A DNA stretch of 64,000 nt from Minisyncoccia bacterium. GTDB taxonomy: Bacteria; Patescibacteriota; Minisyncoccia; Phycocordibacterales; Phycocordibacteraceae. Below, piece after piece: positions 14,105 to 58,269 of the stretch (the first letter of the stretch is position 1; the number at the start of each line of letters is the position of its first letter). The position numbers and the translations under genes were made by a program. The stretch lies in the NCBI GenBank assembly GCA_041485695.1, contig JBGPJZ010000002.1, positions 1,499 through 65,498 of the forward strand, read 5' to 3'. The notes under the pieces are model-generated. The model worked only from the letters and a program-made list of their open reading frames with translations. It ran no database searches and was not told the origin of the DNA.

Positions 14105-15004
14105 CTACGTGCCTAGAGAGCCGGAAGTTATCGTGGTGGCGTCTATAAAATCGTCGAGGTCGCCTGCAAGCACCTTGTCAGGATTTGAGGACTCATGATT
14201 CGTTCGGTGATCTTTGACCATTTTGTATGGGTGAAGGACGTAGGAGCGAATCTGGCTCCCCCACTCGTTCGCCGTGGTTTTCGCAATCGAGCGGCCCTCT
14301 TTCAACGTTTTCGCGTCGGCCTCTTGTTTGGCGAACAGCTTCGCTTTGATGAGTTCGAGTGCTTTTTCTTTATTGGCTGCCTGGCTTCTCTCGCTTGAAA
14401 CGTGTACTGAAATGTTAGTGGGGATGTGGAGTATGCGTACTGCCGTCTCGCGTTTGTTTACATTTTGCCCTCCTGCCCCGCCTGATTTTGCAAATTGTAT
14501 CTCAAGCTCGTCCTGCTTCAGCTCAATCTTGTCGGTCGGTGCGAGCCTGGGGAGCACTTCGACAAGCGCGAAGGAGGTCTGGCGCTTGGCCTGCGCATTA
14601 AAAGGCGACTGGCGCACGAGGCGGTGCACCCCCGCCTCGTGCTTTAAACGACCATAAGGGCCGTTTACCCCGAGTGAAGTCGAGGGGCCAACAATCTCGA
14701 TAAGCACGCTTCGATACCCGCCCTGGGGGTTCTCATTTTCATCCAAGATTTTCGCTGTCCAACCTTTCTTCGCGGCGTAGCCCAGGTACATCGCGAGGAG
14801 CATCGCGGCAAAATCTTCAGCATCGTCACCACCTGCGCCAGCGAGGATGGCGAGCGTTGCATCGCCGCCATCATGGCCCTCGCCGCCTTCTTTAAGCTGC
14901 TGGTACTCACGCACGAGAGCCTGCGCCTTATCTTTATCCGCCCAAAAATCAGGTGATGCCATCATCGCCTCTAACTCTTGAAGTCGTTTCTCGTTTCCTT
15001 TCAT
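14105..15004 (-). CDS. prfB: Peptide chain release factor 2, short form lacking the usual N-terminal extension and frameshift site
   Basis: 299 aa; SPF tripeptide (VRQSPFNAQ) identifies RF2; GGQ motif SGGAGGQNVN. The start codon lies 1 nt from tRNA-Thr, leaving no room for the programmed +1 frameshift leader. Confidence 0.85.
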   Translation of the reverse strand: MKGNEKRLQELEAMMASPDFWADKDKAQALVREYQQLKEGGEGHDGGDATLAILAGAGGDDAEDFAAMLLAMYLGYAAKKGWTAKILDENENPQGGYRSVLIEIVGPSTSLGVNGPYGRLKHEAGVHRLVRQSPFNAQAKRQTSFALVEVLPRLAPTDKIELKQDELEIQFAKSGGAGGQNVNKRETAVRILHIPTNISVHVSSERSQAANKEKALELIKAKLFAKQEADAKTLKEGRSIAKTTANEWGSQIRSYVLHPYKMVKDHRTNHESSNPDKVLAGDLDDFIDATTITSGSLGT

Positions 15005-15005
15005 G

Positions 15006-15078
15006 AGCCGGGGGTCGGGATTGAACCGACGACCTAGGGTTTACGATACCCTCGCTCTACCAACTGAGCTACCCCGGC
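15006..15078 (-). tRNA. tRNA-Thr (anticodon CGT)
   Basis: Reverse complement GCCGGGGTAGCTCAGTTGGTAGAGCGAGGGTATCGTAAACCCTAGGTCGTCGGTTCAATCCCGACCCCCGGCT; canonical cloverleaf with anticodon loop ATCGTAA. Confidence 0.8.
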
Positions 15079-15086
15079 AAGCGAGT

Positions 15087-15110
15087 GAACATAGCAAAAT
15101 TAACATATTT
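15087..15110. repeat. 24-nt exact repeat GAACATAGCAAAATTAACATATTT, copy 1 (between the two tRNA-Thr genes)
   Basis: Identical 24-mer recurs at 16042-16065; both copies lie just upstream (minus-strand sense) of tRNA or tRNA-like genes. Confidence 0.7.
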
Positions 15111-15123
15111 GGTCGAAAACTGG

Positions 15124-15196
15124 AGCCGACGTCCGGGATTGAACCGGAGACCTCGTCCTTACCAAGGACGTGCTCTACCAACTGAGCTACGTCGGC
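15124..15196 (-). tRNA. tRNA-Thr (anticodon GGT), 3' CCA encoded
   Basis: Reverse complement GCCGACGTAGCTCAGTTGGTAGAGCACGTCCTTGGTAAGGACGAGGTCTCCGGTTCAATCCCGGACGTCGGCT followed by CCA. Confidence 0.8.
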
Positions 15197-15296
15197 GAAG
15201 CGAGGAAATGTGACTGCACATCCTCGTGTAGGCAAATTCTCCGAGCGAGCCTGCGTATGCCTACATACGTCGGCGTACGTCTATTTCTAACCTAAT

Positions 15297-15551
15297 TCAG
15301 CTATATTTCAAAATCCCGAAGACAATGGCGAAGTCGAGCGTAGCTAAGAGAAAGTTGGCGATAATGATGGGCTTGTCCTTATGTGCGATGCCATACACGA
15401 CCCACAAACTGTTAATCGCTCCGAGCATGAACCACGTTGAGATTGCGAGCCCAGCCGTGTCGTGCTTAAGGAACACTTGCGATGCTTGCGGCAAAAGCGC
15501 AAGGGGGGAGATGAGCGCAACCGCATAGATGACCTTATCTAAGAGGCGCAT
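15297..15551 (-). CDS. SemiSWEET/PQ-loop family small sugar transporter (putative)
   Basis: About 84 aa, three TM helices, with a PQ motif (ISPLALLPQASQVF) in helix 1. Start chosen at the internal Met MRLLDKVIY; the 113-aa track ORF has a non-hydrophobic leader. Confidence 0.5.
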   Translation of the reverse strand: MRLLDKVIYAVALISPLALLPQASQVFLKHDTAGLAISTWFMLGAINSLWVVYGIAHKDKPIIIANFLLATLDFAIVFGILKYS

Positions 15552-15792
15552 CCATGGGGTCCGCGCCGGGAAAGGCTCACATTTGGGAGCCGACTGCCGC
15601 TTTCGCAGCGATAAGTGATGCAATCCTCCTCCGTTCATTCTCTCCTAGTATACCCGATGCGCGAGGTGGGCAGGACATTTTTCGCAGTTTTTGCTAGGAT
15701 GCCCATAAGCGCTTGCGGTAGTAAGCCTGCGGACAGGCTTTCTCCCAGCGTTCATTCGCAATATAGAGCTTTGCTTCATATTGCTCATTCAC

Positions 15793-15866
15793 GCGGGAGT
15801 AGCTCAATTGGTTAGAGCGCCGCCCTGTCACGGCGGAGGTTGCGGGTTCAAGTCCCGTCTCTCGCG
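15793..15866 (+). tRNA. tRNA-Asp (anticodon GTC)
   Basis: GCGGGAGTAGCTCAATTGGTTAGAGCGCCGCCCTGTCACGGCGGAGGTTGCGGGTTCAAGTCCCGTCTCTCGCG; cloverleaf with anticodon loop CTGTCAC. Confidence 0.8.
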
Positions 15867-15882
15867 CACTATATTATTTTGG

Positions 15883-15954
15883 TGCCGGCGGGTGGAGTCG
15901 CGCCACCGTCTAGGGTTTATGAGTCCCTCGTTCTGACTCTTGAACTACACCGGC
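15883..15954 (-). tRNA. Atypical tRNA-like gene, anticodon CAT (Met/Ile2), CCA encoded
   Basis: Reverse complement GCCGGTGTAGTTCAAGAGTCAGAACGAGGGACTCATAAACCCTAGACGGTGGCGCGACTCCACCCGCCGGCA. It has a 7-bp acceptor stem, a 4-bp D stem and an anticodon loop CTCATAA. The D-loop lacks G18G19 and the T-loop reads CGCGACT instead of TTCRANY, so it may be a degenerate or pseudo-tRNA. Confidence 0.4.
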
Positions 15955-16065: not shown

Positions 16066-16091
16066 TGCCGTTTTTGCGTTGCCAAACGTAA

Positions 16092-18488
16092 ATGGAGTCG
16101 TATAGTGGCGTTATGCGCGCTCGCACGCTCGTGTTCGCTGTTCTTCTCTTCACTGTAATGCCAGCGGTCGCTGAGGCCGCTCCGCATCTGTTCTGGGGTA
16201 ATCCGGAGTGGGACCCTAATACGGGAGCCTTAATCCAGGCGAGCGTAGCCAGCATTACCGACAACACAGATGCCGCCGTGCCCTTTAACGTAAGCAAGGG
16301 CGTATGGGTTGAGTATGCGCCGAACCATGCGGGAATCGGGCTTTTATATTTCGTGCCGCAAGGCGGTGGGCCGCGGGAGCTCGTCGCGACCATCGGCGGC
16401 ATTGCCGGCGTCTCCGAACTCGCCTGGACGCGAGGAGGCTCTTACGAACTCGACGTCTACAATCCCCTTGTCATCATCGAGGTGCGCTCGAATGCCGAGC
16501 GCTTCTTCACATGGCTCTTTGGGGAACATGCGTATGCCCAAAACATAGGCAAGTATGTCGGAACCATTCATTTCAACATTCACGAAAAATCCGCTGATGG
16601 AGCTCCGAGCGTCCTATTCATCCCCGGCATGAAAGGCAGCGTGCTCAAGGTCGGTAACGACACGGTTTGGCCGCCAGATATATGGAGCGACGACCTCCCA
16701 GAGTTGGCGCTAACCGCTGCGGGAGAAAGCGTGAACCCGGTCGTCGTCGACGGCCCGCTTGAGACATTCTACGGCACCCCGATTTACGGTGGGTTTAGCT
16801 CTTTCATGAATGAGCTTGTCGCAACCGGCACGGTTGCCGAGTGGGAGCCTCTCCCCTATGACTGGCGATTCTCCCCTGAACGAATCCTTGCTGACGGCAT
16901 CCAGACACCTACCGGCACGGTCGACCCGGTTCAAGAAGTCGAGATGCTCGCGGCGCACTCTAGCACCGGTAAGGTGGTCGTCGTTGCCCACTCAATGGGC
17001 GGATTGCTTGGCAAGGCACTTATCAAGAAACTTGATGAAAAAGGTGAAGCGAATTTGATTGATTCATTCATCATGGTAGGCGTACCACAGCTTGGCACGC
17101 CCCAAGCAATCGCCTCGCTCCTTCATGGGGACGGCGAGGGGATTTTGGCTGGATTTATCGTGAACCCGGCTATCGCGCGCCAAATCGCACAGAACTTTCA
17201 AAGCGCCTACGACTTGCTGCCCTCCCCTCGTTACTTTGATGAAGTTACCGATGCTCCTATCGTGTTCGATCCAATTGCCGCATTTACGCAGGCGTGGCGC
17301 GACTATTGGGGCCCGGCGATTGATAGCTACGCTGAATTCTTCTCGTTCGTAACCGGAGGCGGCGTAGCACGCATTAAGCCTGATTTCAGTGATTTGCATC
17401 GGCCCGAAATACTTCGTACCGACCTAACCGAAAACGCGAGAGACTTTCACGCTACATACGATACCTATGTATTCCCTCCTTCAATACGCGTAGTGCAAAT
17501 AGCAGGCTGGGGTATCCCGACAGTAAAAACCATTGACTACAAAATGGAGCACTTCGCGCAAAACTACGAACCGCTTTTCACGATCGAAGGTGACGATACT
17601 GTCGTATATCCGAGTGCGACTTCTTCTGTCGCTGATGAGACGTATTTCTTAAATCTTGAGAAATATAGAAAAGAGAAGGATAAAAGCGCACATCATCGAG
17701 ACTTGCTCAGCGCAACTCCAGTTCAAGATATTGTTAATGCAACGATAAAAAATGAAATCATTACAGAAACGAATTATCTAACGCAGTCAAAACCAAGCGC
17801 AAACAACCTTATTGATCAGCTTATTGTAAGCGCCCATTCACCCGTCATTCTTGGTGCCTATGACCAAGGCGGGCACTTCAGCGGTATCAACCAGAATCAA
17901 AACCTGGGAGCAGACGTCCTTTCTGTTACTGAAGACATCCCAGGGAGCACCTTCTTATCTTTTGCCGACAGCCAGTATCTATTCCTCCCCAAAACCGGCC
18001 CATACACGATGGGCTTTAAAGGATTGGGGGCTGGCCTCGCAACGGTAGCTATCGAAAATTTCGCAGGTGATACCGCGACCCCTATTGCTACGTATTCAGA
18101 CATCCTGATTACCGCGAGCACCAGCGCGACGTTTGTCGTGAATAGCTCCTCACCGCAAGATACCCATATACAGGTGGACTCTAACAACGACGGCCAGGTT
18201 GACATGTATGTCGCTCCTGATAACCAGCCGCTCACTTTCAACGAACTTTTGGTAAATTTGAAGACCGTAATCCGAAATCTCGCCGTTAAAGACAAATTGA
18301 AAACTAACCTCCTCAAGAAAGTCGCAAATATGGAGAAAAAGATCGCAAAACAAAAGAACAAAAAGGCTTCAAAAACGGTTATGAACCTAGAGAAACAAAT
18401 AACGAGGAAGGCAAATAAAGATAAAATATCTGACACTGAAGCACAAGATATTCTGAATTTGCTGAGTCAGATAGAAAACGCGCTATAA
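16092..18488 (+). CDS. Secreted LCAT-like (lecithin:cholesterol acyltransferase family) lipase/acyltransferase with a Lys-rich coiled-coil tail
   Basis: Signal peptide MRARTLVFAVLLFTVMPAVAEA (probable start at 16113); PLPYDWR motif characteristic of the LCAT/PDAT family; nucleophile elbow VVAHSMGGLLG; C-terminal about 70-aa K/E-rich helix. Confidence 0.55.
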   Translation: MESYSGVMRARTLVFAVLLFTVMPAVAEAAPHLFWGNPEWDPNTGALIQASVASITDNTDAAVPFNVSKGVWVEYAPNHAGIGLLYFVPQGGGPRELVATIGGIAGVSELAWTRGGSYELDVYNPLVIIEVRSNAERFFTWLFGEHAYAQNIGKYVGTIHFNIHEKSADGAPSVLFIPGMKGSVLKVGNDTVWPPDIWSDDLPELALTAAGESVNPVVVDGPLETFYGTPIYGGFSSFMNELVATGTVAEWEPLPYDWRFSPERILADGIQTPTGTVDPVQEVEMLAAHSSTGKVVVVAHSMGGLLGKALIKKLDEKGEANLIDSFIMVGVPQLGTPQAIASLLHGDGEGILAGFIVNPAIARQIAQNFQSAYDLLPSPRYFDEVTDAPIVFDPIAAFTQAWRDYWGPAIDSYAEFFSFVTGGGVARIKPDFSDLHRPEILRTDLTENARDFHATYDTYVFPPSIRVVQIAGWGIPTVKTIDYKMEHFAQNYEPLFTIEGDDTVVYPSATSSVADETYFLNLEKYRKEKDKSAHHRDLLSATPVQDIVNATIKNEIITETNYLTQSKPSANNLIDQLIVSAHSPVILGAYDQGGHFSGINQNQNLGADVLSVTEDIPGSTFLSFADSQYLFLPKTGPYTMGFKGLGAGLATVAIENFAGDTATPIATYSDILITASTSATFVVNSSSPQDTHIQVDSNNDGQVDMYVAPDNQPLTFNELLVNLKTVIRNLAVKDKLKTNLLKKVANMEKKIAKQKNKKASKTVMNLEKQITRKANKDKISDTEAQDILNLLSQIENAL

Positions 18489-18498
18489 TTTCTACAGC

Positions 18499-18900
18499 AT
18501 GAAAAACAAACTTATCTTGGTTTTCTTTATCTTCTCTCTCATTGGTTTCGCAGTTGGATACTATTTGCTTAAAATCTACGACTGCGAATATAGCGTATTT
18601 TGCTACAATCTTGCAACAAGGGCCTTCGCTCTCTACTACGGAATGCCTGCTCTTGCTCTAGTCTTTTCCATGCTGCTCTTCATCCCACGTGCGCTTGATG
18701 CATGGAAGAAGTTTGCAATATGGTTTGTACCGCTTGCGGCTTTACTCTTTATTTTCTATCCAGAACCCGGCTCTGGTGACTTATTCTCGCCTTATCCCGA
18801 GCAAATCTTTCAATGGGTCAGTGCTCTATATGTCGTGGTAAGCGTCGTCATTATTGCGATTGTATCGTTACGTACATCAGAGCCGTTAACTAATCGGTAA
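18499..18900 (+). CDS. Membrane protein (3-4 TM), hypothetical
   Basis: 133 aa, hydrophobic, with a Cys-containing loop. Confidence 0.35.
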   Translation: MKNKLILVFFIFSLIGFAVGYYLLKIYDCEYSVFCYNLATRAFALYYGMPALALVFSMLLFIPRALDAWKKFAIWFVPLAALLFIFYPEPGSGDLFSPYPEQIFQWVSALYVVVSVVIIAIVSLRTSEPLTNR

Positions 18901-20481
18901 CTCAACGATGAAGCGAGAGCCTTTGCCAGGGCCGTCGCTTTCGGCCCAGATTGTGCCCCCATGCCCTTCAACGAGCTGTTTCGCGACGTAGAGCCCCAAG
19001 CCCGTACCGGTAGTGTTCACTTTGTTCGCGCCCCTGGCGCGCGTGAACTTCTCAAAGAGGCCACCTATCTCCTCCTTCGGGATGCCTATGCCGGTATCTA
19101 AAATAGTGACGCGCGCCTTACCGTTTTCGCCTTTTACGGCAACCGTCACGCGCCCCTTTTCGGTGTATTTGATGGCGTTATCGACGAGGTTTGAAATGAC
19201 TTGTTTTATCTTGCCTACGTCTGCAGTCACCTTGAGCGCATCGGATGTTTCAAGCGTGAGGGCAAGGCCGCGCCGCTCGGCCACAGGATGCAATTCTTCA
19301 ACCGTTTTTTTAGTCACATCGGCAAGGTCGAAACTGCTCTTTTCATACTTCATCCGCCCCTGTTCGATGCGCGAGATATTCAAATAATCCTCAATCGAGT
19401 TGGCCATGTTGCGTGCCGAGTCGTTAATGCGCGACAAGGGCTCACGCATCTTTTCTGACGTTTCGCCATAATCCCCCTGCAAGATAAGCGAGGCGTAGCC
19501 TCGTATCGCCGTAATCGGCGCTCGCAGTTGGTGTGAGGCAATCGACAAAAACTCACTTTTCGCCTGATCAAGCTCCTTTAATTTCTCGTTCGCAATCTCG
19601 AGATTGAAAGTATCTTGGACAATCTTGATGCTCCCCAAAAGGATGATGATGAAGGCGGCGATATTAATAGCTACCGCACTGACGTTTGTCGAGTATACGA
19701 TATTCACAAAACTGAACACGGTCACCATAAAACCTAGGAACGCCGTGGCTGCGACTTTCAAGTTAAATAAATGGTGGCGATAAATCGCATATGAAATAAG
19801 TGCAACGAACGGGAGAATAAATAGTGCGGCAAGAGGAATGAAGCTCACATTGGCAAATACATTTGGCAAAATCACGTTGAAATTAAGAATGAGAATGGCC
19901 ATGACCGTCATTCCTATGGATACAGCCGTAATCTGCCTGCGTTCAGATAACTCCATTGTCTCGCTTCTCTTTTTAAACAAGAAAACGATGCTCGCAATCA
20001 ATAGCCCAAAGGCAAGAAGCATGAAAAGGAGGACCCCAGGAGCAGGATCCGCCCGTGTTACCTGGCCAATGGGAGCAAGCGACGCGATACCTGAAAAGAC
20101 GAATGGTGTGAGCGTTAGGATAGCGACAGCCCCCACCGCGGGAACGAGAACCCACTTATACCAATGTGGGAACACTACTTTTTCTTTAGGAAATACGTAG
20201 GCGAACTGGAAAAAGATGAAGGCATATAAAGTCGAGAAAAAGAGATGGAACCTGAGCGCCCACAAAATGCCATTGACAGTAGTAAACCTGTATTCAAGAT
20301 AGTTGGAGATGCTCCAAATAACGGTAATGACTGCGAAAGCAAAAAAAGTCTGGTTGGTTATGCTGGTGCGATTATTAAAAAGGATAACCGCGCCAAGTAG
20401 CGTTATGCCAGCGATAGCTACACCGACGCTCAAAAGATCAAGATTTATCTGAACGAGCTGACTAACGCCAGAGATGCCCAT
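18886..20481 (-). CDS. Sensor histidine kinase with polytopic N-terminal membrane domain
   Basis: About 8 TM helices, then a HisKA H-box (SHQLRAPITAIRGY) and an HATPase_c domain with N-box NLVDNAIKYT, DTGIGIP and GTGLGL. Confidence 0.85.
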   Translation of the reverse strand: MGISGVSQLVQINLDLLSVGVAIAGITLLGAVILFNNRTSITNQTFFAFAVITVIWSISNYLEYRFTTVNGILWALRFHLFFSTLYAFIFFQFAYVFPKEKVVFPHWYKWVLVPAVGAVAILTLTPFVFSGIASLAPIGQVTRADPAPGVLLFMLLAFGLLIASIVFLFKKRSETMELSERRQITAVSIGMTVMAILILNFNVILPNVFANVSFIPLAALFILPFVALISYAIYRHHLFNLKVAATAFLGFMVTVFSFVNIVYSTNVSAVAINIAAFIIILLGSIKIVQDTFNLEIANEKLKELDQAKSEFLSIASHQLRAPITAIRGYASLILQGDYGETSEKMREPLSRINDSARNMANSIEDYLNISRIEQGRMKYEKSSFDLADVTKKTVEELHPVAERRGLALTLETSDALKVTADVGKIKQVISNLVDNAIKYTEKGRVTVAVKGENGKARVTILDTGIGIPKEEIGGLFEKFTRARGANKVNTTGTGLGLYVAKQLVEGHGGTIWAESDGPGKGSRFIVELPIS

Positions 20482-20483
20482 GG

Positions 20484-21416
20484 TTATTTATAATACTTCA
20501 AAAGATAGAACCCTGTCGTCCCATAAAAACTAATAACTCCACGACCCTTAGTATACTGGACGACATCTTTCTTACCGCGAAAGCGCAGATTTGAAAATAC
20601 CTCTCCATTGAGAAAATGGGGGTAGTTCCATCCAACAATGGCTTGAGGAAGCATAACTGGCCAGCTTTTATAGCCATCCAGTTCAATGTGCTGTTTAGCT
20701 ATCGTTTCGCAAGCTTGATCAAGTTTCTCTTGCTCCGGCAAATTAAGATGGTGACGAAAGAGAGAGTGGTAAACGAGGTCGAAATGCTTTGGTGGGAACT
20801 TGTTTGCGAGTTCAAATATATCGTTCGTGCACATGACGACAAGAATCTTCTTTTGTGATTTCTCTCGCATTCGTTTTAAATCTTCCGCGGTAATTTCACC
20901 GACCTCCACAATCTCTGCCTTTTCGGCGAATTCTTTCAAATTCTTATCCGCAATTTTGCGCGTTATCGAGGATTTATCTACGGCAACGATAGTCAGCGCG
21001 TGAGGATGATTTGTTTTGAGGGCCCATTCGATGACTTGCCTATCCACCTCCATGCCTCCTGCGCCGAGATCAGCAATTATAAGGTCTCGATTTTCGCTCT
21101 GAATGTATTCAGTAATTGCATTAACTAGTGGGGTTATGAGACCCGGATTTTTGCGTCTCTGCATCTCAATAAGCCGACTATGCATTTCTACATCCCATTC
21201 TTCGACCGGAAAGTCGGTGAGCTCAAGAAGTCGAGAGCCGTCGAGCTTTGGTGCTACGAAAAAGAGCCACCAGATATAGCCCGGCAAAGACCGCGCCGCG
21301 TTCAAAAAAACAATATTCGCATCTATCGCGTACTGCTGGTTCGCATAGACAGGGTCCTTTCTAAAAGACTCAAGTTTCTGAAGCGCCTGCTGTATCTGTC
21401 CAGTTCTGGCCGACAT
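20484..21416 (-). CDS. Hypothetical protein, possible SAM-dependent methyltransferase fold
   Basis: 310 aa, AT-rich coding sequence; LIIADLGAGGMEV resembles methyltransferase motif I. Weak evidence. Confidence 0.3.
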   Translation of the reverse strand: MSARTGQIQQALQKLESFRKDPVYANQQYAIDANIVFLNAARSLPGYIWWLFFVAPKLDGSRLLELTDFPVEEWDVEMHSRLIEMQRRKNPGLITPLVNAITEYIQSENRDLIIADLGAGGMEVDRQVIEWALKTNHPHALTIVAVDKSSITRKIADKNLKEFAEKAEIVEVGEITAEDLKRMREKSQKKILVVMCTNDIFELANKFPPKHFDLVYHSLFRHHLNLPEQEKLDQACETIAKQHIELDGYKSWPVMLPQAIVGWNYPHFLNGEVFSNLRFRGKKDVVQYTKGRGVISFYGTTGFYLLKYYK

Positions 21417-21592
21417 TTAGTAATTGTACCTCGAAGACAACTCTTGAAGAAGAGCGCCGTACAAAAAACCACTCCGGCCGTACCAAAAAAGCAGGTGTCA
21501 AGCCGAGTTATCCCCAGTGGGAGTTTACTTCCCTCTTACAATTGCCGGGAGTTTCTTCTACTCGATAGTAAGTTGACACCATAGATAGAGTA

Positions 21593-21874
21593 ATGCTAGA
21601 GTTGAACTGGGCCTTAAGGAGGTGGCCTAAAATGCGAGCGAAAAAGTTTAGTTTCTCAGTGCGTAACGAAGACTTCAAGTTCCCAGAATGTTCGAATCCC
21701 CTCTGCCTGGGTGGTTGCGTGCTGATCGCGATCAAACCAGAGGGTGTCGCTCTCCGTGACTCGAAGGACACGAAGGGACGAGAGACCACCATGTTCTTCA
21801 CGAATCTCGAGTGGGACCACTTTCTCAAGGGCGTCAGGAATGGCGAGTTCGAAATCGCCGGCACCGTCGACTAG
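21593..21874 (+). CDS. DUF397-domain protein
   Basis: C-terminal …GGCVLIAIKPEGVALRDSKDTKGRETTMFFTNLEWDHFLKGVRNGEFE matches the DUF397 consensus (CVEVA…VAVRDSKDP…f…EW.aFl.gvk.GEFD). Confidence 0.5.
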   Translation: MLELNWALRRWPKMRAKKFSFSVRNEDFKFPECSNPLCLGGCVLIAIKPEGVALRDSKDTKGRETTMFFTNLEWDHFLKGVRNGEFEIAGTVD

Positions 21875-21919
21875 AAGTGATCCCACATGACGACATTCAT
21901 CGTCATGCTGTAGACTTAG

Positions 21920-21956
21920 GTGAGGGCGGACAGCAAATCCGCCCTCACTTTTTATA
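21920..21956 (+). terminator. Intrinsic terminator after the DUF397 gene
   Basis: GTGAGGGCGGA-cagcaaa-TCCGCCCTCAC (11-bp perfect stem) followed by TTTTTATAAT. A second 8-bp hairpin (CATGACGA…TCGTCATG) lies at 21886-21907. Confidence 0.7.
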
Positions 21957-22403
21957 ATGACAAAACCACTATTTATTCATGGGTTAGGCGAACAAGCGAG
22001 CAACTACCGAGCTCTCTCGCGTTCTTTTGATCTATACAATATCGACTGGAATCGACCGCTCACGAATCAAGTTGCAAAAATCCCTAAAAAATATGACACC
22101 ATTATTGGTTTTAGTTGGGGTGCAGTTGCCGCCTGTTTTTACGCGGGACAATTCCCAGTGAAATTCCTTATCTTGTGTTCTATGCCCTCAGGGGCGGACG
22201 CTGCTTACATGGCAAATTTGAAAGCTGAAAAAGTGATTTTTCTGTTTGGCCAGAAAGAGAAGTGGCCAGCGAAGGACAACCGCCGGATTACGAAGCAAAT
22301 GAAAAAGCAGTTCACTCGTCAGATTATTGTGGCGAACGAAGGGCATAGAATAACTAAGCCTTACCTTAAAACTATTTTAGAAACCATTAAGGATGTAGCT
22401 TGA
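21957..22403 (+). CDS. Small alpha/beta-hydrolase-fold protein
   Basis: 148 aa; LFIHGLG, nucleophile-elbow-like GFSWGA, C-terminal EGH. Confidence 0.45.
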   Translation: MTKPLFIHGLGEQASNYRALSRSFDLYNIDWNRPLTNQVAKIPKKYDTIIGFSWGAVAACFYAGQFPVKFLILCSMPSGADAAYMANLKAEKVIFLFGQKEKWPAKDNRRITKQMKKQFTRQIIVANEGHRITKPYLKTILETIKDVA

Positions 22404-22427
22404 TTCTAGCTAATCGACGCAAGTATT

Positions 22428-23810
22428 ATGAATCACGAAAGACCTACAACACCATCGCTACCCGCAGAGAAAGAAAGAGATACTATCATTGAAGAAGCGG
22501 GTGCCGCCGAGAGTAGAGTAAGCAGTGCTGCCGAACAGCAAGTCGAAAAATCGAGCGCGCAGCATTCTGAACACAACGATTATGGTCTTTTAGATCACGC
22601 GAAATATCGTGATCGAATGTTGCCTGAACTTATTGAGAATAAAGAGCTAGATCTGAACGGGAATGATTTAGAGATAGTCAGGGAGTACCTTACCAAGCAA
22701 GATCCCGCCTTTGTAGCCGATTTGAGATTAATGATAGGAGGTCAGAAAGCTATGAGTATGGGGGTTGAAACAGTCATTACAATTCCCTCTTATCAAGAAG
22801 GGAGAAATTTGGAAAAGACTCTGCGGAATTATGCAAAATTGAACAATAGAAATGGTTTTGAGATCGTAATTTTGGAGAATCATCCAGAAGGCGTTAAGCG
22901 AGATAATTCTGCTGATATTATCGACAGCGTTAGGAAAGAATTTCCGGATCTTAATATCGTTCATCTCTACAAAGTTTTCAAAGAGAAACCGGCCATTGGC
23001 GGAGTTCGTAAATATCTGGTTGACGCCGTGCTATTAAGAAAATCAGAAAGTAATATAGAGAAGTCGATTGTTATTGTAAGCAACGACGCAGATCTAGAAG
23101 ACATCAGCGAGGATTACGCAAATCAATTGAGCGCGGCGTTCCAGAAAAATAAGAATGTGGATGCAATTGAAGGAAAGCGGGATTACCCAGCCGAGACCTA
23201 TAGAAAGTACCCACTACTGCATGCGAGCCAACGCCTATGGAATTATCTTGATATTGCATTCAAAAAATACCATTTAAAGACAGAAGAATTGACCGGAACC
23301 AACAGTGCATTTCGCTCCGGTATCTATGCGGCGATTGGCGGATACAACGAGAAAGCGCAGCTCGCCGAAGACTGGGAACTCGGTCAATTAATCAAGGAGG
23401 CGCGAGGGGGTGACTCCGAGCGCATCAAGCATCTTAACTCAACATGGCTTATTTCGAATCCGCGACGGGCTGTTGTGACCATGCTTTCTGGTCGTAACTT
23501 GATTCAGCAACACGAGGATTTCCATGTAAATGAGGAGGTGCGCAAAACCTCAGTAGAAGACTTGTTACGAGAAAAGCGAGATCTAGATGAGAAGGAATTT
23601 ACTAATGAGGTTCAGGCCACGTATGAGCATTGTGCAAGATGGAAGAAATCAAAAGGAGGATCGGCTGACGATGAATACATCAACAAGTCTTTTGACCGTG
23701 CAATGCGATTCCTGGGCGTAAATTATGAGATTGTGAATGATAAAGTCATAATTTCGGATATAGCGCGTCTTAGAGAAGGGTTAAGGAAATATGAATTAAA
23801 GAATTCTTAG
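22428..23810 (+). CDS. Family-2 glycosyltransferase with ~100-aa disordered N-terminal region
   Basis: GT-A core VITIPSYQEGRNLEKTL…FEIVILENH and DxD-like SNDADLED; AT-rich codon usage. Confidence 0.55.
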   Translation: MNHERPTTPSLPAEKERDTIIEEAGAAESRVSSAAEQQVEKSSAQHSEHNDYGLLDHAKYRDRMLPELIENKELDLNGNDLEIVREYLTKQDPAFVADLRLMIGGQKAMSMGVETVITIPSYQEGRNLEKTLRNYAKLNNRNGFEIVILENHPEGVKRDNSADIIDSVRKEFPDLNIVHLYKVFKEKPAIGGVRKYLVDAVLLRKSESNIEKSIVIVSNDADLEDISEDYANQLSAAFQKNKNVDAIEGKRDYPAETYRKYPLLHASQRLWNYLDIAFKKYHLKTEELTGTNSAFRSGIYAAIGGYNEKAQLAEDWELGQLIKEARGGDSERIKHLNSTWLISNPRRAVVTMLSGRNLIQQHEDFHVNEEVRKTSVEDLLREKRDLDEKEFTNEVQATYEHCARWKKSKGGSADDEYINKSFDRAMRFLGVNYEIVNDKVIISDIARLREGLRKYELKNS

Positions 23811-23822
23811 GGGTAAAAGGTG

Positions 23823-24902
23823 TTAGGAATCTTTCTTGGGTCTAATCGTCACAGTGTCCACAAGCGGGAAGCGGACGGCCTGTGCTGAAGGCGGCTCGCC
23901 CTTGCCGACACGAAACATGAATGCGAGGTGACGATCTCCCGCTTTGAAGATATCTACGGCTACTTGGTACGCACTTAGAATCGTGTCTTTTTCTTTTGTT
24001 GAAAAGTCGCTACCCTCCCCTCCTTTAATTTTGAGCTTGAAAAAGAGTACACCCGTCATCGGTTGAAATGAGAGGCCAAGCGAGGTCGCGATGAGCCAGA
24101 GCCGCTCTACTGCGCGGCCTACTTTTACAAAATCGATTGGCTCTGTCCCGCTAACCGTGAGGCCGCCGATAGCACTCGCGGCCGCATTCGTCACCCCGTT
24201 TTGAATAGCCACGACTCGATTGAAACCGAGGACTAAGAACAGGCGCATGATGCCCCACTTCTTAAAAAGCCTAAACATTATCTGTGCGGGTGGCGGTAAC
24301 TCGAGCGTCTTGATATAAAAACCGATTTTCTTTTTGTCATCCTCTTCTTTTGTCCAATTTATATGACTAAAGAAAAAGCTGTGGAGCGACTGGTTCGCAA
24401 GCATGACCTCTTCGTTCGTCGAACCGACGCGCCCCAGGCACCTAATATCTTCAGGAGCCTCTACGAGCGTCAAAGCACCTTGCCCGGCGGCCATAAGTGC
24501 CTGTCGCGCTTCGCTCGAAAGAGGCTCCTTACCGTACGGCTTACGATTTGAGACGCGCTTAAAAATAAAGAATGTAAGTGGGTCGGGCTTTACGGTCGAA
24601 TCTTTTGTAAGAGTGAGCGTCGCAACATGGTACTTGTCAGTTGAGTTGGGGAAGTATGCGACATCTACTCGATACCCCTTGCCGCTTGCGGCAATAATCA
24701 TATTTTCTATTGCGGCACCATTAGCGAGATAGGAGCCCCTTTGACCCCAACCGTAGGCAGATTGATCTCGCTCTGGTAGTACATGAACTTCGACAGTGTT
24801 GGCCAACACGACAAAATGCCAGGGCTGACAATTCTCCCCCGAGGGGGCCTGACTCCCCGCCACCAGAATGCGTTCAAGCTCCTGGGAGAGGCCAGAGATC
24901 AT
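23823..24902 (-). CDS. Nitroreductase-fold (SagB/McbC-type dehydrogenase-like) protein, apparent tandem two-domain form
   Basis: N-terminal APSGENCQPWHFVV (canonical nitroreductase FMN-binding motif); a second RxSNRKPY-type start near residue 115; 359 aa is long for the fold. Confidence 0.65.
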   Translation of the reverse strand: MISGLSQELERILVAGSQAPSGENCQPWHFVVLANTVEVHVLPERDQSAYGWGQRGSYLANGAAIENMIIAASGKGYRVDVAYFPNSTDKYHVATLTLTKDSTVKPDPLTFFIFKRVSNRKPYGKEPLSSEARQALMAAGQGALTLVEAPEDIRCLGRVGSTNEEVMLANQSLHSFFFSHINWTKEEDDKKKIGFYIKTLELPPPAQIMFRLFKKWGIMRLFLVLGFNRVVAIQNGVTNAAASAIGGLTVSGTEPIDFVKVGRAVERLWLIATSLGLSFQPMTGVLFFKLKIKGGEGSDFSTKEKDTILSAYQVAVDIFKAGDRHLAFMFRVGKGEPPSAQAVRFPLVDTVTIRPKKDS

Positions 24903-50169: not shown

Positions 50170-50206
50170 GGACCTGTAGCTCACGCTACGGGTCCGCTCT
50201 TTTTTA
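50170..50206. terminator. Bidirectional intrinsic terminator
   Basis: GGACC-t-GTAGC-tcac-GCTAC-g-GGTCC compound hairpin followed by GCTCTTTTTTATAAT; it overlaps the stop codon of the minus-strand gene. Confidence 0.5.
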
Positions 50207-51722
50207 TAATCGTTACAATTCCCTTTTCGGCGTCTATCTCAATCTCATCGCCGTCTTTCAAGACTTTAGTCGCGATTTTTGTTGCGATGACACAGGGCTT
50301 ATTAAATTCACGCGACATGATGGCAGCGTGAGAAAGGAGCCCTCCCTCGTCGGTCACTATGGCTGATGAGCGTTTCATCGCTGGGACGTAATCAGGGTTC
50401 GTCATCGGACACACAAGTATTTCACCCTCAAGGAGCGTATGCGCCTGGGTTGGGTCGAGCGCCACTCTCACTTTCCCTCGTACAAATCCTTTACAGGCGA
50501 CCTGGCCGCGTAGTTCAGTAATTGTGGTGTCAACTTTATTGAGCTCCGTATCAATCCAGGTGCTTATCGCGTGCCCCTCCTCTCCTACCGCCAAGCGTTG
50601 TTCGCCACCGATAATAGCCATCGCAAATCCTTTCCTTCGTTCCTCTATCACTTTCGCCAAGACGGTTTTATCTGTCATGAGAGCTTCAAAGATTTCTCTC
50701 GAGAGAAGAAATTTCATGTCGACAAACGCGACGCCGATTCTTTTTGCAACTAACTGCATAAAGTCGAGATAGCGCGATGATGAAATATACGCCTCTTCAA
50801 TCCCCGCAGTTAACCCATAACCGAGTTCTCGAGCATTTTCAATATGAAGAACCAGTTGCGAATCCGTTTTAATCTCTTCAATGATTCTTTGCGCGATGTG
50901 CTCATTCTTCTCTGCGGCCTTCTTTTGTATCTCGAGGTTCTCTTTGAAATTCTCTTTTTGAGCCTTGTGTACCCTCTCGACGAGTTGGGCATATGACATC
51001 GGGAGGAGTGGGCTTAAAATAAATGTTGTGAGCCAATCATACTTTTCTAAGTACTCCTTTGCTTCTGCCTTAAACCGGGGGTCATTTGCAAAGTCATCAT
51101 TTTTATCAGCAAGCGAGACAAGCTTGCACATGTCCTCTTGTTCAAGCTGAAAGGCTGTTTTCTTTATAGGGAACACCAGCGTAAGTAAAGCTTCATCAAT
51201 AGCAACAATCGCCTCTATTTCTTTTCGATGCTTCTCGAGTCCCTCTTTAACTCGGTCAGTTAAGATGTTCTCCTTAGAGACGTACCAAGGGTAGTAGAAC
51301 CAGGGCACGAGTTTGATAAAACTCGCATCCATCTTTTGCCAATATGATGCAAGCTCTTCATTGGTGATGCCCTCATTTTGTATTGCTCTGTTCACTATGT
51401 CAGCTTCTGCATTAAATGTTCTGGGGAACTCTACGGTAGATTTTAGAAAGTGCTGCAGAGCCTCTGGATTATCTAGCTTCTCCCTCAATCCTTTAAATAA
51501 GATTTGTTTTTGTGTTGGGATATCGTACCCCTTGCTTGAATCGGTGAAAAGATAGTCGAGCGTATCTGTGGTACCCGTTATCCATGGGATGAGGTATTGC
51601 GAAAGGGCGCGGCAAAAGAAATCGCAGAGGGAGATTGGCTGTTCTCCGCGCTGTTGAAACTCATACTCCCATTGTGTTAGGTCGATATCCTCCCGTTTGA
51701 GCGTTTTGACTTCGTAATCCAT
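50181..51722 (-). CDS. Protein with unknown ~380-aa N-terminal domain plus C-terminal PEP-utilising-enzyme mobile (phosphohistidine) domain
   Basis: C-terminus …CPMTNPDYVPAMKRSSAIVTDEGGLLSHAAIMSREFNKPCVIAT… has the GGxxxHAAIxxRE phosphohistidine swivel-domain signature. Its start overlaps the stop of the upstream gene. Confidence 0.7.
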   Translation of the reverse strand: MDYEVKTLKREDIDLTQWEYEFQQRGEQPISLCDFFCRALSQYLIPWITGTTDTLDYLFTDSSKGYDIPTQKQILFKGLREKLDNPEALQHFLKSTVEFPRTFNAEADIVNRAIQNEGITNEELASYWQKMDASFIKLVPWFYYPWYVSKENILTDRVKEGLEKHRKEIEAIVAIDEALLTLVFPIKKTAFQLEQEDMCKLVSLADKNDDFANDPRFKAEAKEYLEKYDWLTTFILSPLLPMSYAQLVERVHKAQKENFKENLEIQKKAAEKNEHIAQRIIEEIKTDSQLVLHIENARELGYGLTAGIEEAYISSSRYLDFMQLVAKRIGVAFVDMKFLLSREIFEALMTDKTVLAKVIEERRKGFAMAIIGGEQRLAVGEEGHAISTWIDTELNKVDTTITELRGQVACKGFVRGKVRVALDPTQAHTLLEGEILVCPMTNPDYVPAMKRSSAIVTDEGGLLSHAAIMSREFNKPCVIATKIATKVLKDGDEIEIDAEKGIVTIIKKSGPVA

Positions 51723-51723
51723 G

Positions 51724-54700
51724 TTACTTAAGAATCGTCACGATTCCCGTGTTGGCGTCCATTTCGATTTCATCGCCATCTTTTATTACCTCGCTTGCGT
51801 TACCAGTGCCGACGATGCAGGGAATATTTAACTCGCGGCTCACGATTGCTGCATGCGAGAGCATGCCGCCCTGGTCGGTGATGATGCCTCCTGCTTTTTT
51901 GCACGCTGGCATTAATTCGGGCGAGGTCGTCTCTGCAATCAAGATATCGCCCTTCTGCATAGCATCCATCAGGTGATGCAGTGTATCAAAGTTGTCGTAG
52001 CCCGAAACGATGATTCGCGCCCTGCCCCGCGCAATACCCGGGTGAGCTGTGGTGCCTGTTACCGTCTCGCCATGGCTAGCGTTGCCTACGAAGCTCTCAA
52101 TCGCGTGCCGAGCCGAGGGGCCTGTTTTACGCACCGTGCTACCTTCGACACCTATGATGTAAAAAGCATTCTCGCGATGCGCGATCTCCTCTTCGGGCAC
52201 TTTCGCGGCGTCAAAAAGGTTGAGGATCTCTTGGCGCGAATATTGCTGCAGGGTGCGCTCGGATATGTTGAAACGCTCCCCAAGACTCTTTAACAGTTTC
52301 GGCAAAACAGCGTCAGCGCCAAAAAAGATTGAATTCAAGAACTCTCGACCCTCGTTCTTCAGTTCGCCCATGAGCGAGAGTCTCTCTTCAATCCCTTTGT
52401 CTTTCGTCTCTTTTGATTTTTTGTACGCGCCGTCCATATAAAAGAACTCCGTCTTCGAATAGTAGAAAAAGAGCCGGGCGATATCGTTGAGCAAACGCTC
52501 TACTTCCTCTTTTGAGAGCTTGCTGTAGGCGAGGCTTTCCGCAATCATTCGTATCTCTTTCATGTAGGCGCGGAATGCGTTTTGAAAGTGGGTGAAGTCC
52601 GCAGCATCTGAAATGAGTCTGGCTCCTTCGGCAAGAGTTTTCTGTACAGTCGTATGCGAAAGATAGCTGGTGTAAAAATCATCAATAACCGTGGTCAGGG
52701 CACCGAGCGTTTGGTAATGCTCCATCCAAATGTCGTCGATAAAGTAGCGCAGGCCCTGCACGCGAAAGAGCCGTTGCCACTCATCTTTGCTTCCAAATGG
52801 ATGACTCCGTTTGAGAATTGCTACTGTCCCCTTCTTTGTATCAACTTCGATCTCATCTCCATTATTGAGGATTTTCGTAGCGAAGCCCGTCTCGACTATA
52901 CAGGGTATCCCCATTTCGCGGGCGGTGATAGCGGCATGCGAAAGCATGCCGCCGGCGTCAGTAACAACTGCAGCCGCTTTCTTAAACGCTTCTATAAGCT
53001 CTGGGTCTGTACTATCTGAGACCAAAATTTCTCCCTTTTGCATTTCGTGCATCTGCCCTTGCAAGATTTCCCGGTTGCTATAATCACGAATAATTTTACG
53101 CACCTTCCCGCGGACAGTCGGCCCTGTATGCGCTGTCTTACCGGTAAGCACTTCTATAATTGAGTCCCCAACATTCTCAACTTTGGCGATAAACCTCTGG
53201 GCGGCATCCCCTACAAGAAACTCCACACCACCTTTCGTCTTATGGAGTACCCAGGCCTGCGTGCGCGCCTCGAGCGCTTGCTCGCTAACATGGGTACCAC
53301 CAAACAACGCGAGTACTTCGGCTCCTCGATACCAGTTCACAGTTTCGGTGGTAAGCGAGCGTTGTTTGGCGACTTTTGCTACTAACGTTTGCAGGTATGA
53401 ATCCGCGCCGAAAAAGATTTTCTCCATGCGCTCGCGTATCTCGTTTTTAAAACTCTCAACCAGAGCGACGTTCTCTTTCGCCGCCGGGTCGGTAGCGCTT
53501 CTCTCGAACACTTTATCCCAATACATATAGTCGAAGTAGGCATACTGCCCGCAAATCTTACTGATGAGCGTAAATACATGCTCCGCATCTTTGCGCGCAA
53601 TCTCCTTCTTTTGCCTTAGCATCTTGATTTCTCCCAGCCCTTGCTCAACGAGCGCCGTAAGCGACGCGATGACCTCCTTAGTATCGGCAGGAGTGCGTCT
53701 AAGCCCGATGTCTCGAGCTTCTTCTGTGGTTTTCTTCTCCCAGTAAGAGAGCTCTTTGCCGCCATGGCCTAACACGGCTGATTCAACAGGCATGTAACCC
53801 TCATTGACCACATCCTCGAAAAGAAATGGTGTCCCTTGAGCGCTGAATGCAAAAACAAACTCCGGCTCGGCTCTGGCATTTAAAATGCGTACGATGCCGT
53901 TATCAGCATCGACTTCAACTAAGTCCCCATCTTTTAAGACTTCAGTCGCGATTTTGGTGCCTACGATACACGGCTTCTTCATTTCGCGTGAGACGATTGC
54001 TGCGTGGCAAGTTAAACCGCCTTCGTCGGTAATAAACGCGGCTGCTTTTTGCATATAGGGCACGTACTCTGGGTTTGTCATCGGAGCAACAAGGACATCG
54101 CCCACGCCGATTTTGGCAATCTCTTTTTTATTCATCACCAAGCGCACCGTACCAGCAACCTTCCCCGGGTACGCTGTCTGACCTTTAATCTCTTTTGCGC
54201 CGTCTGCATCAATCTGCTCGAGCTTCAGGTTCTTTTCTTTAAGAATCTGCTCAAGCTTTGAAAGCGGCCAGATATCACCCTTAATCAAGAAGCACCCCTC
54301 TTGATACCTCTGCTCAAGTGTTGCGATAAGCTCTTTGTCTGCATGTTTTGCAAGCTTTACGGCCTCCTCTGGAGTGATGACGTACGAGAACTTTGCATAC
54401 TCGGGGAACTCTGTCTCCCAGAATTCGACAAAATTTGAGCTCATCTTGTCTGTGTACTGCTCGGTCTCCTCACGAATCTTCAAGATACTTTCTCTAAAAT
54501 CAGGCTGCAAGTCGGGATTATTCGGAAGTTCGAAAAAGACTGTGTTCATCGCAGACCAAAAATCAACGATGTGGCGGTAGTATGAGTACATCTCGTCAAC
54601 GCTCTTAAGTTTCTGCGAGCCTGACAGATACTGTGCTGCTTTAGCCCATGACTTCTCCATCTTTTCTACAACGCGAAGCCGAAGGTTCGCATCATCGTGC

Positions 54701-56541: not shown

Positions 56542-56565
56542 GTCTCGCTAATATAGCGCTTTTCA

Positions 56566-58254: not shown

Positions 58255-58269
58255 ATGCCTAGTTAGATA

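Follow-up and report, generated by a model that had tools for sequence, protein, structure and literature searches.

The locus raises the question of what an exported LCAT/LPLA2-family enzyme and an adjacent membrane protein do for a patescibacterial cell. Much of bacterial diversity falls within the Patescibacteria, most of which are apparently unable to make their own membrane lipids. Members of the LCAT/LPLA2 family make lysolipids and can move acyl chains without activated carriers. An exported enzyme of this family fits the gap in the lipid supply of Patescibacteria, for which the mechanisms of lipid uptake and breakdown have not been identified (PMC11665869). CPR-rich cell fractions are enriched in lysolipids, and lipidomics points to lysolipids obtained from neighbours (PMC7242380). 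The idea that a secreted phospholipase feeds a CPR cell is not new and was proposed earlier for Vampirococcus (PMC8080830).

The enzyme gene lies at 16092..18488 on the + strand of the window, the whole 64,000-nucleotide stretch of DNA analyzed here. It runs from an ATG to a TAA in the ORF listing, encodes 798 amino acids, and has the same bounds as in the initial annotation. The ORF is not a chance one, since hundreds of homologues match it at E = 0. The Pfam LCAT match and several hundred homologues identify the product as an exported serine hydrolase of the LCAT/LPLA2 family. Because the alignments of several homologues begin at query residue 8, the alternative ATG at 16113 (M8) is probably the true start. 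The family is almost confined to Patescibacteria of the Paceibacteria type; judged by where the homologues occur, the patescibacterial origin proposed earlier is supported.

A predicted Sec-type signal peptide spans residues 1-29 (16092..16178, +). The N terminus, MESYSGVMRARTLVFAVLLFTVMPAVAEA, contains basic residues, a hydrophobic core with an 11-residue hydropathy peak of 2.96, and AxA sites. Cleavage is predicted after AVA (residue 27) or AEA (residue 29), and the AlphaFold model places a helix at residues 6-22. The signal peptide is the sole hydrophobic segment in the hydropathy profile of the enzyme. A comparable N terminus is found in 108 of 120 homologues, and no second membrane segment was detected in any of the 120. 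The hydropathy profile and the similar N termini of the homologues bear out export by a signal peptide.

The catalytic region is predicted to be an LCAT/LPLA2-like α/β-hydrolase with cap-like insertions and covers residues ~170-556 (16599..17759, +). Pfam LCAT (PF02450) matches the enzyme with 60.6 bits (E 2e-16), well above the gathering threshold of 21 bits, over residues 232-387 only. Precomputed PF02450 matches exist for essentially all homologues. In a sequence search of the PDB, the only significant matches were LPLA2 and LCAT, with ~17-19% identity to LPLA2. The AlphaFold model has a pLDDT of 88.3 and a pTM of 0.77, and the pLDDT of the catalytic region is mostly above 90. The top 11 Foldseek matches to the model are all LPLA2 or LCAT (E 6e-13 to 3e-09 over ~440 columns; target TM 0.57-0.67), including LPLA2 4x92 (E 6e-13, target TM 0.66) and LCAT 5bv7 (E 6e-11). 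The cap and membrane-binding insertions of the LCAT family appear to have counterparts in the enzyme, as judged from the overall fold match. The comparison of a predicted structure with LCAT and LPLA2, proposed in the initial annotation, thus returned these enzymes as best matches (E ~1e-12).

The PYDWR motif, a signature of the LCAT family, is located at residues 255-259 (16854..16868, +) and aligns residue for residue with LPLA2 and LCAT. Y256, D257, W258, and R259 are invariant in 72 sequences. The AHSMGG nucleophile elbow is located at residues 299-304 (16986..17003, +) and aligns with LPLA2; H300, S301, G303, and G304 are invariant in the same set. Both motifs had been noted earlier, and their key residues are conserved throughout. 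Ser301 (16992-16994) is the predicted catalytic nucleophile. It pairs with Ser165 of LPLA2, and the S165A mutant chain of 4x92 deviates from the wild type exactly at this position.

The predicted catalytic acid, Asp501 (17592..17594, +), is situated in an EGDDTV motif in which E499, G500, and D501 are invariant in the 72 sequences. It pairs with the catalytic Asp of LPLA2, the second Asp of the DGDGTV motif (Asp327, counted along the alignment), in a segment that is not significant alone. The predicted catalytic base, His535 (17694..17696, +) in an AHHRDLL motif, is likewise invariant in 72 sequences. His535 is assigned as the base because its position after the Asp fits the Ser-Asp-His order of α/β-hydrolases. 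By invariance and residue order, it would be equivalent to His359 of LPLA2.

Other family profiles match less well. PGAP1 (PF07819), the second profile suggested for checking, scores 20.5 bits against a cutoff of 24.3 and covers only residues 288-334 around the nucleophile elbow. DUF676 is also below its cutoff and covers ~50 residues in the same place, and an NCBIfam search gave no match. The initial annotation would have fallen if neither LCAT nor PGAP1 matched and the motifs lay outside a hydrolase core. PF02450 exceeds its threshold and both motifs map inside the α/β-hydrolase core of the model, which supports the LCAT-family assignment on sequence and predicted structure.

LCAT (lecithin:cholesterol acyltransferase) and LPLA2 (lysosomal phospholipase A2, PLA2G15) are secreted enzymes that work at the surface of lipids and are able either to hydrolyse acyl chains or to transfer them. 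They share with the enzyme of the window the PF02450 family, which also includes PDAT, an α/β-hydrolase core, PYDWR, an (A/G)HS(M/L)G elbow, and the Ser-Asp-His order. The enzymes also display notable differences. LCAT and LPLA2 possess a conserved disulfide in the lid or membrane-binding region. Such a disulfide is impossible in the enzyme of the window, which contains no cysteine among its 798 residues; the disulfide is a trait of the animal enzymes and is outside the Pfam definition. In addition, the enzyme of the window is bacterial, has three extra domains (an N-terminal β domain, a β-sandwich, and a FIMAH-like helical domain), and is accompanied by a gene for a membrane protein. Family membership fixes neither the substrate nor the choice between hydrolysis and acyl transfer.

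The catalytic region is preceded by a β-rich N-terminal domain of residues 30-166 (16179..16589, +), with model strands at 32-124 and 154-165. Mapping of the homologues shows that the N terminus is the variable part of the enzyme family and that the C terminus is conserved. The N termini of the closest relatives (70-73% identity) are unrelated and longer, and some contain β-helix domains. The type of N-terminal domain seen in the window occurs only on these enzymes, at 14 of 79 loci. A C-terminal swap, which the ~79% coverage by the closest homologues suggested and which would have accounted for the GC drop as well, was discarded, as the mapping places the difference in the N-terminal ~170 residues.

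The catalytic region is followed by a conserved β-sandwich domain of residues ~570-712 (17799..18227, +), with model strands at 576-707 and a pLDDT above 90. Many of its residues are invariant in 72 sequences. Neither the N-terminal domain nor the β-sandwich has a Pfam match even at E <= 10. For the β-sandwich and the helical module together, no PDB fold match was found at E <= 0.001; matches to the Hsp70 substrate-binding domain and to Ig-like domains were weak and not significant.

The enzyme ends with a lysine-rich helical-bundle module of residues 716-798 (18237..18485, +). The model contains four helices at residues 716-728, 734-752, 756-775, and 781-797. The module of 83 residues has a net charge of +10, and 17 lysines are found in the last 80 residues of the enzyme. 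The module is conserved and is present in one to four tandem copies across the family, with an exact second 82-residue copy in 23 of 72 homologues. The tail was described initially as a lysine-rich helical coiled coil. Its lysine content and helicity stand, but it is a discrete four-helix bundle of ~82 residues rather than a generic coiled coil. The additional proposal that it binds anionic membranes fits the conserved positive charge of the sequence.

The module weakly resembles the FIMAH domain (PF22888), which is also all-helical and has a profile of 81 positions, close to the 82 residues of the module. FIMAH matches 9 of 43 copies of the module in the family at E <= 0.01, with a best value of 6.3e-07. 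However, the copy in the window itself scores below the cutoff (19.9-20.2 bits versus 24.8 bits). No paper on the FIMAH domain was found in the literature, and a FIMAH match would therefore assign no function to the module.

The arrangement of an α/β-hydrolase lipase followed by a C-terminal β-sandwich is also seen in BlEst2 from Bacillus licheniformis (6wpx) and EstA3 from Thermoanaerobacter. Neither is known to contain a PYDWR motif. The two enzymes provide a precedent for a β-sandwich behind a lipase core that affects the use of long-chain substrates, and in EstA3 the β-sandwich is required for such substrates (PMC10816834). However, BlEst2 and EstA3 have no detectable sequence relationship with the enzyme of the window and lack both the helical tail module and a known membrane partner, and the superposition with 6wpx is poor (TM 0.34-0.37).

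A second gene, encoding a protein of 133 residues with four predicted membrane helices, is located at 18499..18900 (+) and starts 10 nt past the stop codon of the enzyme gene. This partner gene is absent from the initial annotation. It lies directly 3' of the enzyme gene on the same strand at 62 of 79 loci by profile search and at 63 of 79 by clustering; the profile search found no partner at the other 17. The adjacency persists at ~30% enzyme identity. The partner is the sole other gene family conserved around the enzyme, with 63 loci versus at most 11 for any other family. Its own conservation (55-76% identity) is above that of the enzyme. The JGI dataset 3300053057 also contains both genes.

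The partner has four hydrophobic segments connected by loops of 9-16 residues. Both termini are predicted to lie inside (N-in/C-in), and the loops facing outward are acidic. The outward loops include a CxxxxxC motif and the acidic stretch PEPGSGDLFSPYPEQ, which is very strongly conserved. The partner has no Pfam match even at E <= 10, and none of 226 close homologues carries an informative Pfam family or name. An exhaustive search yielded 517 sequence clusters. The partner thus represents a new unannotated membrane-protein family, and the enzyme offers a way into its function.

The enzyme and partner genes are probably co-transcribed. No terminator-like site is present between them, and promoter and terminator scans gave nothing above chance. 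Gene order by itself suggests a physical interaction between the two products. No natural fusion supporting an interaction was identified. The sole candidate, P0253, joins the first ~50 residues of the core to partner helices 2-4 and was rejected, as it looks like a deletion or assembly chimera. Partner adjacency was also compared with the presence of the tail (36/8 versus 20/9, Fisher p = 0.26), a weak test because divergent tails escape the tail profile. Adjacency is independent of a detectable tail, and there is therefore no support for simple docking of the basic tail onto the acidic loop.

A secreted lipase gene followed by the gene of a membrane-anchored helper is known from the LipA-Lif systems of Pseudomonas and Burkholderia. 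Lif has a single membrane helix, and its large helical domain in the periplasm is wrapped around the lipase. The partner, in contrast, has four membrane helices with only short loops between them, and no sequence similarity to Lif was detected.

The best explanation, which we hold with moderate confidence, is a two-gene module composed of an extracellular phospholipase A/acyltransferase and a membrane partner. The first product is a Sec-exported, cysteine-free, multi-domain serine hydrolase with a predicted triad of Ser301, Asp501, and His535 plus the PYDWR motif. Its most likely activity would be that of a phospholipase A, which cuts an acyl ester bond in a membrane glycerolipid, with the substrate suggested by analogy. 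The acyl chain may go to an acceptor rather than to water, as in LCAT and LPLA2. The reaction would take place outside the cell and need no ATP, CoA, or ACP. The β-sandwich and the positively charged helical module may serve to target the enzyme to a surface or to regulate its activity, and the N-terminal domain fills a slot that varies among lineages. The second product would interact physically with the enzyme at the membrane of the producing cell, where it may hold the enzyme, control it, or receive its lipid product.

Lipid acquisition or remodelling from neighbouring or host cells is a plausible role for this module. A more specific and tentative possibility is that the enzyme and its partner form a lipid-acquisition device of Paceibacteria-type Patescibacteria that has not been identified so far. 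The enzyme would remove acyl chains from host membrane lipids or pass them on, without ATP, CoA, or ACP. The partner would serve as its anchor and as the route by which the resulting lysolipid or fatty acid is taken up or flipped into the membrane of the symbiont. Such a device, if real, would explain both the building of membranes without fatty-acid synthesis and the enrichment of lysolipids. The pair is a concrete candidate for the processing of outside membrane lipids by ultra-small, lipid-dependent Patescibacteria, and its conservation across many Paceibacteria lineages makes it a specific candidate for cloning and testing. If the pair is an ordinary surface esterase, the finding shrinks to a known enzyme family with an arrangement of domains specific to this lineage.

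Three other readings were weighed against the evidence. The enzyme may be an offensive phospholipase acting on host or competitor membranes, with the partner shielding the membrane of the producer by the logic of Tle/Tli toxin-immunity pairs. Tle4 in the Tle4-Tli4 complex (4r1d) is the best structural match beyond LPLA2 and LCAT (E 5.5e-09, with a target TM of only 0.45) and a weak sequence match as well. Like the pair in the window, Tle4 (PA1510) and Tli4 combine a bacterial lipase of related fold with a small adjacent cognate gene, and the partner gene follows the enzyme gene tightly, 10 nt away here and adjacent at 62 of 79 loci. In addition, a role in breaching the envelopes of host cells has been proposed for the phospholipases of CPR predators (PMC8080830, PMC11665869). 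Several features make this reading unlikely, however. The enzyme carries a Sec signal peptide. Neither a secretion-system gene, type VI or other, nor a contact-dependent delivery domain was seen next to the enzyme. Of the other large ORFs that were scanned, only one, located 26 kb away, gave a secretion-type match (a T2SSE/PilB-type ATPase). Immunity proteins are usually fast-evolving, whereas the partner occurs in a single copy and its conservation exceeds that of the enzyme. Known Tli proteins are either soluble or lipoproteins; the partner is a conserved four-helix integral membrane protein, embedded almost wholly in the membrane. An offensive role is itself compatible with a phospholipase and a membrane partner.

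Alternatively, the enzyme may serve the housekeeping of the envelope, for example by deacylating or transacylating lipoproteins, lipoglycans, or lysolipids of the producing cell, with the substrate presented by the partner and no host involved. The module is widespread, conserved, apparently single-copy, and placed amid housekeeping genes, and the conservation of the partner resembles that of a core gene. The sub-threshold similarity to PGAP1 and DUF676 deacylases at the nucleophile elbow points in the same direction but extends over only ~50 residues. The lineage-varying N termini, some with β-helix domains, would suit the recognition of diverse targets outside the cell more than that of one constant substrate of the cell itself, and the partner is missing at 17 of 79 loci, so that we consider a housekeeping role quite improbable. 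We are just as doubtful that the β-sandwich and helical module lie over the active site as an auto-inhibitory pro-region until they are removed or displaced, an arrangement described for the propeptide of BlEst2 by the depositors of 6wpx. The propeptide form of BlEst2 matches with a Foldseek E of 2.6e-06 in an alignment that exceeds the length of its catalytic domain, and the β-sandwich is highly conserved. However, the TM to 6wpx is low, the rmsd is 14-15 Å, and 6wpx is not among the top matches of a separate C-terminal model. A helical module in one to four tandem copies also looks more like a binding or spacer repeat than like a pro-peptide, and no processing site is evident. Auto-inhibition concerns the function of the tail only and is compatible with any role of the enzyme.

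As stated initially, the enzyme gene is at the edge of a tRNA cluster: four tRNAs occupy 15005-15954, with the start of the gene 138 nt past the last one. The ten neighbour genes encode ABC/FtsX, RF2, SemiSWEET, a histidine kinase, a methyltransferase, and similar proteins. The reported drop in GC content over the 3' half of the gene is real. The GC content is 0.58-0.61 in codons 1-300, 0.41-0.46 in codons 451-600, 0.52 in codons 601-700, and 0.34-0.42 in codons 701-798. Recombination has no support as the cause: no sharp break in identity to the closest relatives occurs along the gene, and the low GC runs on. The drop is not peculiar to the enzyme gene but marks the onset of a regional lower-GC block of 6-7 kb (~17.4-24 kb), which starts within the gene and spans the next five genes.

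The open reading frame at 16092..18488 (+) runs from ATG to TAA and encodes a protein of 798 residues, precisely as placed by the initial annotation. The product is an exported serine hydrolase of the LCAT/LPLA2 family with an intact catalytic triad, and its gene is paired with that of a conserved membrane protein. This partner gene, absent from the initial annotation, is the main new result.

The partner ORF (18499..18900, +) encodes 133 residues and starts 10 nt past the stop codon of the enzyme gene. A terminator scan revealed no terminator-like site in the 10-nt gap. Partner homologues were identified by tblastn in 42 of the 72 related loci with enough downstream sequence, and by profile search in 62 of 79 loci. 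In nearly all of these 62 the two ORFs are immediate neighbours and share a strand, even at an enzyme identity of ~30%. Unsupervised clustering of all neighbouring ORFs recovered the enzyme (79 loci) and the partner (63 loci) as the only conserved families; the third-ranked neighbour family was present in 11 loci. Conservation of the partner exceeds that of the enzyme.

The partner contains four hydrophobic segments, and the positive-inside rule predicts an N-in/C-in topology. Both predicted outward loops are acidic. A pair of cysteines is near-invariant in one of them; the other consists of PEPGSGDLFSPYPEQ, likewise near-invariant and preceded by AWKKFAIWFVPLA. The family includes 226 close homologues of 55–76% identity; among the matches listed, none has an informative Pfam family and the only name given is "hypothetical protein". 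An exhaustive profile search returned 517 clusters (50% identity), almost all of them stand-alone proteins of 125–150 residues. One match to the family, P0253, joins the start of the enzyme core directly to helices 2–4 of the partner and looks like a deletion or assembly chimera across the pair. In another, P0387, the partner is duplicated in tandem. Two partner copies occur in one related locus (L054), and two enzyme loci (L066 and L071) in genome bin KR_bin-0332.

A HisKA_7TM histidine kinase gene (18886–20481, −) converges with the partner gene, and the two share 15 nt at the partner's 3′ end. About 9–10 other loci also have a related kinase near the pair, a recurrence that may merely reflect the close relatedness of those genomes. 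Three short metagenome contigs, L080 (JGI 3300053057), L081, and L082, encode a partner identical to that of the window, with the same genes on either side: the 3′ end of the enzyme gene precedes it and the histidine kinase gene follows. At least three public datasets thus contain this organism or one very closely related to it.

The assignment of the enzyme to the LCAT family is supported by sequence profiles and by the predicted structure. PF02450 (LCAT) scores 60.6 bits against a curated Pfam cutoff of 21. PGAP1, the other profile that had been suggested, did not hold up: like DUF676 and other hydrolase models, it remained below its Pfam cutoff and covered the nucleophile elbow alone. An NCBIfam search gave zero matches. 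When all PDB sequences were searched with the single sequence, LPLA2 and LCAT were the only matches; a 72-sequence profile matched LPLA2 and, weakly, Tle4. An AlphaFold2 model built from the 72-sequence alignment is confident, with a mean pLDDT of 88.3 and a pTM of 0.77. Foldseek comparison of the model with the PDB ranks LPLA2 first (E 6e-13, target TM 0.66) and LCAT second (E 6e-11, TM 0.60); next are Tle4, a phospholipase of type VI secretion (E 5.5e-09), and BlEst2, a lipase from Bacillus (E 2.6e-06). The two motifs on which the family had originally been proposed, PYDWR (residues 255–259) and AHSMGG (residues 299–304), are both present and fall within the hydrolase core. With this placement and the LCAT profile match, the assignment stands.

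S301, D501, H535, and the Y256-D257-W258-R259 stretch are invariant in the 72-sequence alignment. The LPLA2 S165A mutant chain (4x92) and the wild type differ precisely at the column aligned to S301, identifying S301, by alignment, as the counterpart of the LPLA2 nucleophile. D501, in EGDDTV, lies opposite the catalytic Asp of LPLA2 in DGDGTV, in an aligned segment that is low-scoring by itself. H535 is the putative triad His, as judged from its invariance and its place in the residue order. The enzyme contains no cysteine, so the lid disulfide present in animal LCAT and LPLA2 is impossible.

In the model, the protein is sequentially composed of a signal peptide (residues 1–29), a β-rich N-terminal domain (~30–166), the LCAT-like core (~170–556), a β-sandwich (~570–712), and four short helices (716–797). 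The N terminus, MESYSGVMRARTLVFAVLLFTVMPAVAEA, combines basic residues, a strongly hydrophobic core, and AxA cleavage-type sites, and is the single hydrophobic segment found in a scan of the whole protein. A like N terminus is present in 108 of 120 homologues and a second membrane segment in none of the 120, in agreement with the signal peptide originally noted. In several homologues the sequence starts only at residue 8 of the query, and ATG 16113 may therefore be the true start, which leaves the conclusion unaffected. A promoter-like site at 16079–16115, with a −10 hexamer TATAGT (16101–16106) six bases 5′ of ATG 16113, would fit a leaderless transcript from this codon. In a promoter scan of the enzyme region, such sites were no more frequent than expected by chance.

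The nearest relatives (70–73% identity) align to residues ~170–798 and carry different, longer N termini, some with β-helix domains, whereas relatives at ~50% identity share the full length. This mapping rules out a swapped C terminus, as it is the N terminus that differs and the C-terminal part that matches. The window-type N-terminal domain occurs on these enzymes only. Since some of them share just ~30% identity, the domain probably dates back to the ancestral enzyme, other lineages having since replaced it. The β-sandwich is highly conserved in the 72-sequence alignment and has no Pfam relative and no significant PDB relative. A C-terminal β-sandwich is common to the enzyme and the bacterial lipases EstA3 and BlEst2; it is required for long-chain substrates in EstA3 and is inhibitory in BlEst2 according to the depositors (PMC10816834).

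The protein ends in ~83 helical residues rich in Lys (17 in the last 80), which together carry a net charge of +10. These features had been read as a Lys-rich coiled-coil tail, of which the helical and Lys-rich character is borne out but the coiled coil is not. The tail is a discrete module of ~82 residues. It is modelled as four helices of 13–20 residues each with a pLDDT of ~90, which indicates a folded bundle rather than a long coiled coil. Its net positive charge is retained in nearly all homologues. An exact second copy is present in 23 of 72 sequences, and copy number ranges from 1 to 4 across related loci; the window holds one copy each of enzyme, partner, and tail module. Within ~0.9 Mb of sequence examined, the module is confined to these enzymes. 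The Pfam family FIMAH scores just under its cutoff on the window's tail copy and matches 9 of 43 tail copies individually (best E 6.3e-07). A literature search on FIMAH found no publication, so the match lends the tail a probable name without implying a function. The data give no support to a simple model in which the basic tail docks on an acidic loop of the partner: whether the two genes are adjacent does not depend on whether a tail is detectable (p = 0.26).

The chemistry of the LCAT and LPLA2 families is well established and is the basis for the activity proposed here. The enzyme would cleave acyl esters of membrane glycerolipids at the interface, and the acyl chain may pass to an acceptor; ATP, CoA, or ACP would not be required. 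Judged solely from gene order, the partner may cooperate with the enzyme at the membrane of the producer cell, anchoring it, regulating it, or accepting its product. A plausible role is the acquisition or remodelling of lipids from neighbouring cells. Such a role fits the stated gap in knowledge of lipid acquisition in Patescibacteria (PMC11665869) and the enrichment of lysolipids in CPR fractions (PMC7242380). That a CPR cell might feed by secreting a phospholipase has already been proposed, for Vampirococcus (PMC8080830). Within the limits of our literature search, no earlier description of this enzyme family or of the partner was found.

The fold similarity to Tle4 and the tight adjacency of the two genes would also suit a toxin and its immunity protein, but the Sec signal on the enzyme, the lack of a delivery system among the neighbouring genes, and the stronger conservation of the partner make this unlikely. 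A housekeeping role in the envelope, with lipids of the producer itself as substrate, appears distinctly improbable. Auto-inhibition by the C-terminal region, as proposed for BlEst2, would be compatible with any of these roles and is itself quite doubtful. The enzyme belongs to a known family, has a lineage-specific architecture, and is accompanied by a conserved, uncharacterised membrane protein; the pair would gain in interest if these bacteria proved to acquire their lipids through it.

Almost all enzyme homologues come from Paceibacteria-type Patescibacteria (Kaiserbacteria, Nomurabacteria, Taylorbacteria, Zambryskiibacteria, Lloydbacteria, and Minisyncoccia). Two more records are probably mis-binned contigs. 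Many records are nominally "uncultured Candidatus Saccharibacteria" and derive from third-party bulk assemblies ("TPA_asm").

GC content falls along the enzyme gene. The drop over its 3′ half, pointed out in the initial annotation, is real but not gene-specific; it marks the start of a regional block (~17400–24000, GC 0.43–0.48) comprising the enzyme 3′ half, the partner, the 7TM histidine kinase, a methyltransferase-like gene, a 148-residue ORF, and a GT2 glycosyltransferase. GC3 in the six genes of the block is 0.42–0.57 in five and 0.58 in the sixth, against 0.61–0.71 in upstream housekeeping genes. Within the tail, GC2 is low (0.20–0.24) because of Lys and Asn codons. Along the enzyme gene, identity to the nearest relatives has no break indicative of recombination, and recombination as the cause of the drop is not supported. 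The 148-residue ORF (21957–22403, +) has no Pfam match and contains a GFSWG motif reminiscent of an α/β-hydrolase nucleophile elbow.

The surrounding genes are ordinary (ABC/FtsX, RF2, SemiSWEET, 7TM histidine kinase, CTP synthase, LigA, PilB, and GatA). Four tRNA genes (15005–15954) lie immediately 5′ of the enzyme gene, which does sit at the edge of a tRNA cluster as described. Within the cluster is a gene for a small SemiSWEET-type (MtN3_slv) sugar transporter (15297–15638, −). The RF2-like ORF (14105–15004, −) encodes 299 residues only, with a PCRF profile match from position 97 on. Its start codon adjoins tRNA-Thr (15005–15078), so that neither the customary N-terminal portion nor an upstream segment read by frameshifting would fit. 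A further lower-GC block at 50–57 kb contains an unusual cluster of PEP-utilizers proteins (50181–58284, −). Its 1605-residue member (51724–56541, −) combines a PPDK_N ATP-binding domain with three PEP-utilizers mobile domains, and the two flanking proteins each end in a PEP-utilizers domain, one of them with an HTH domain.
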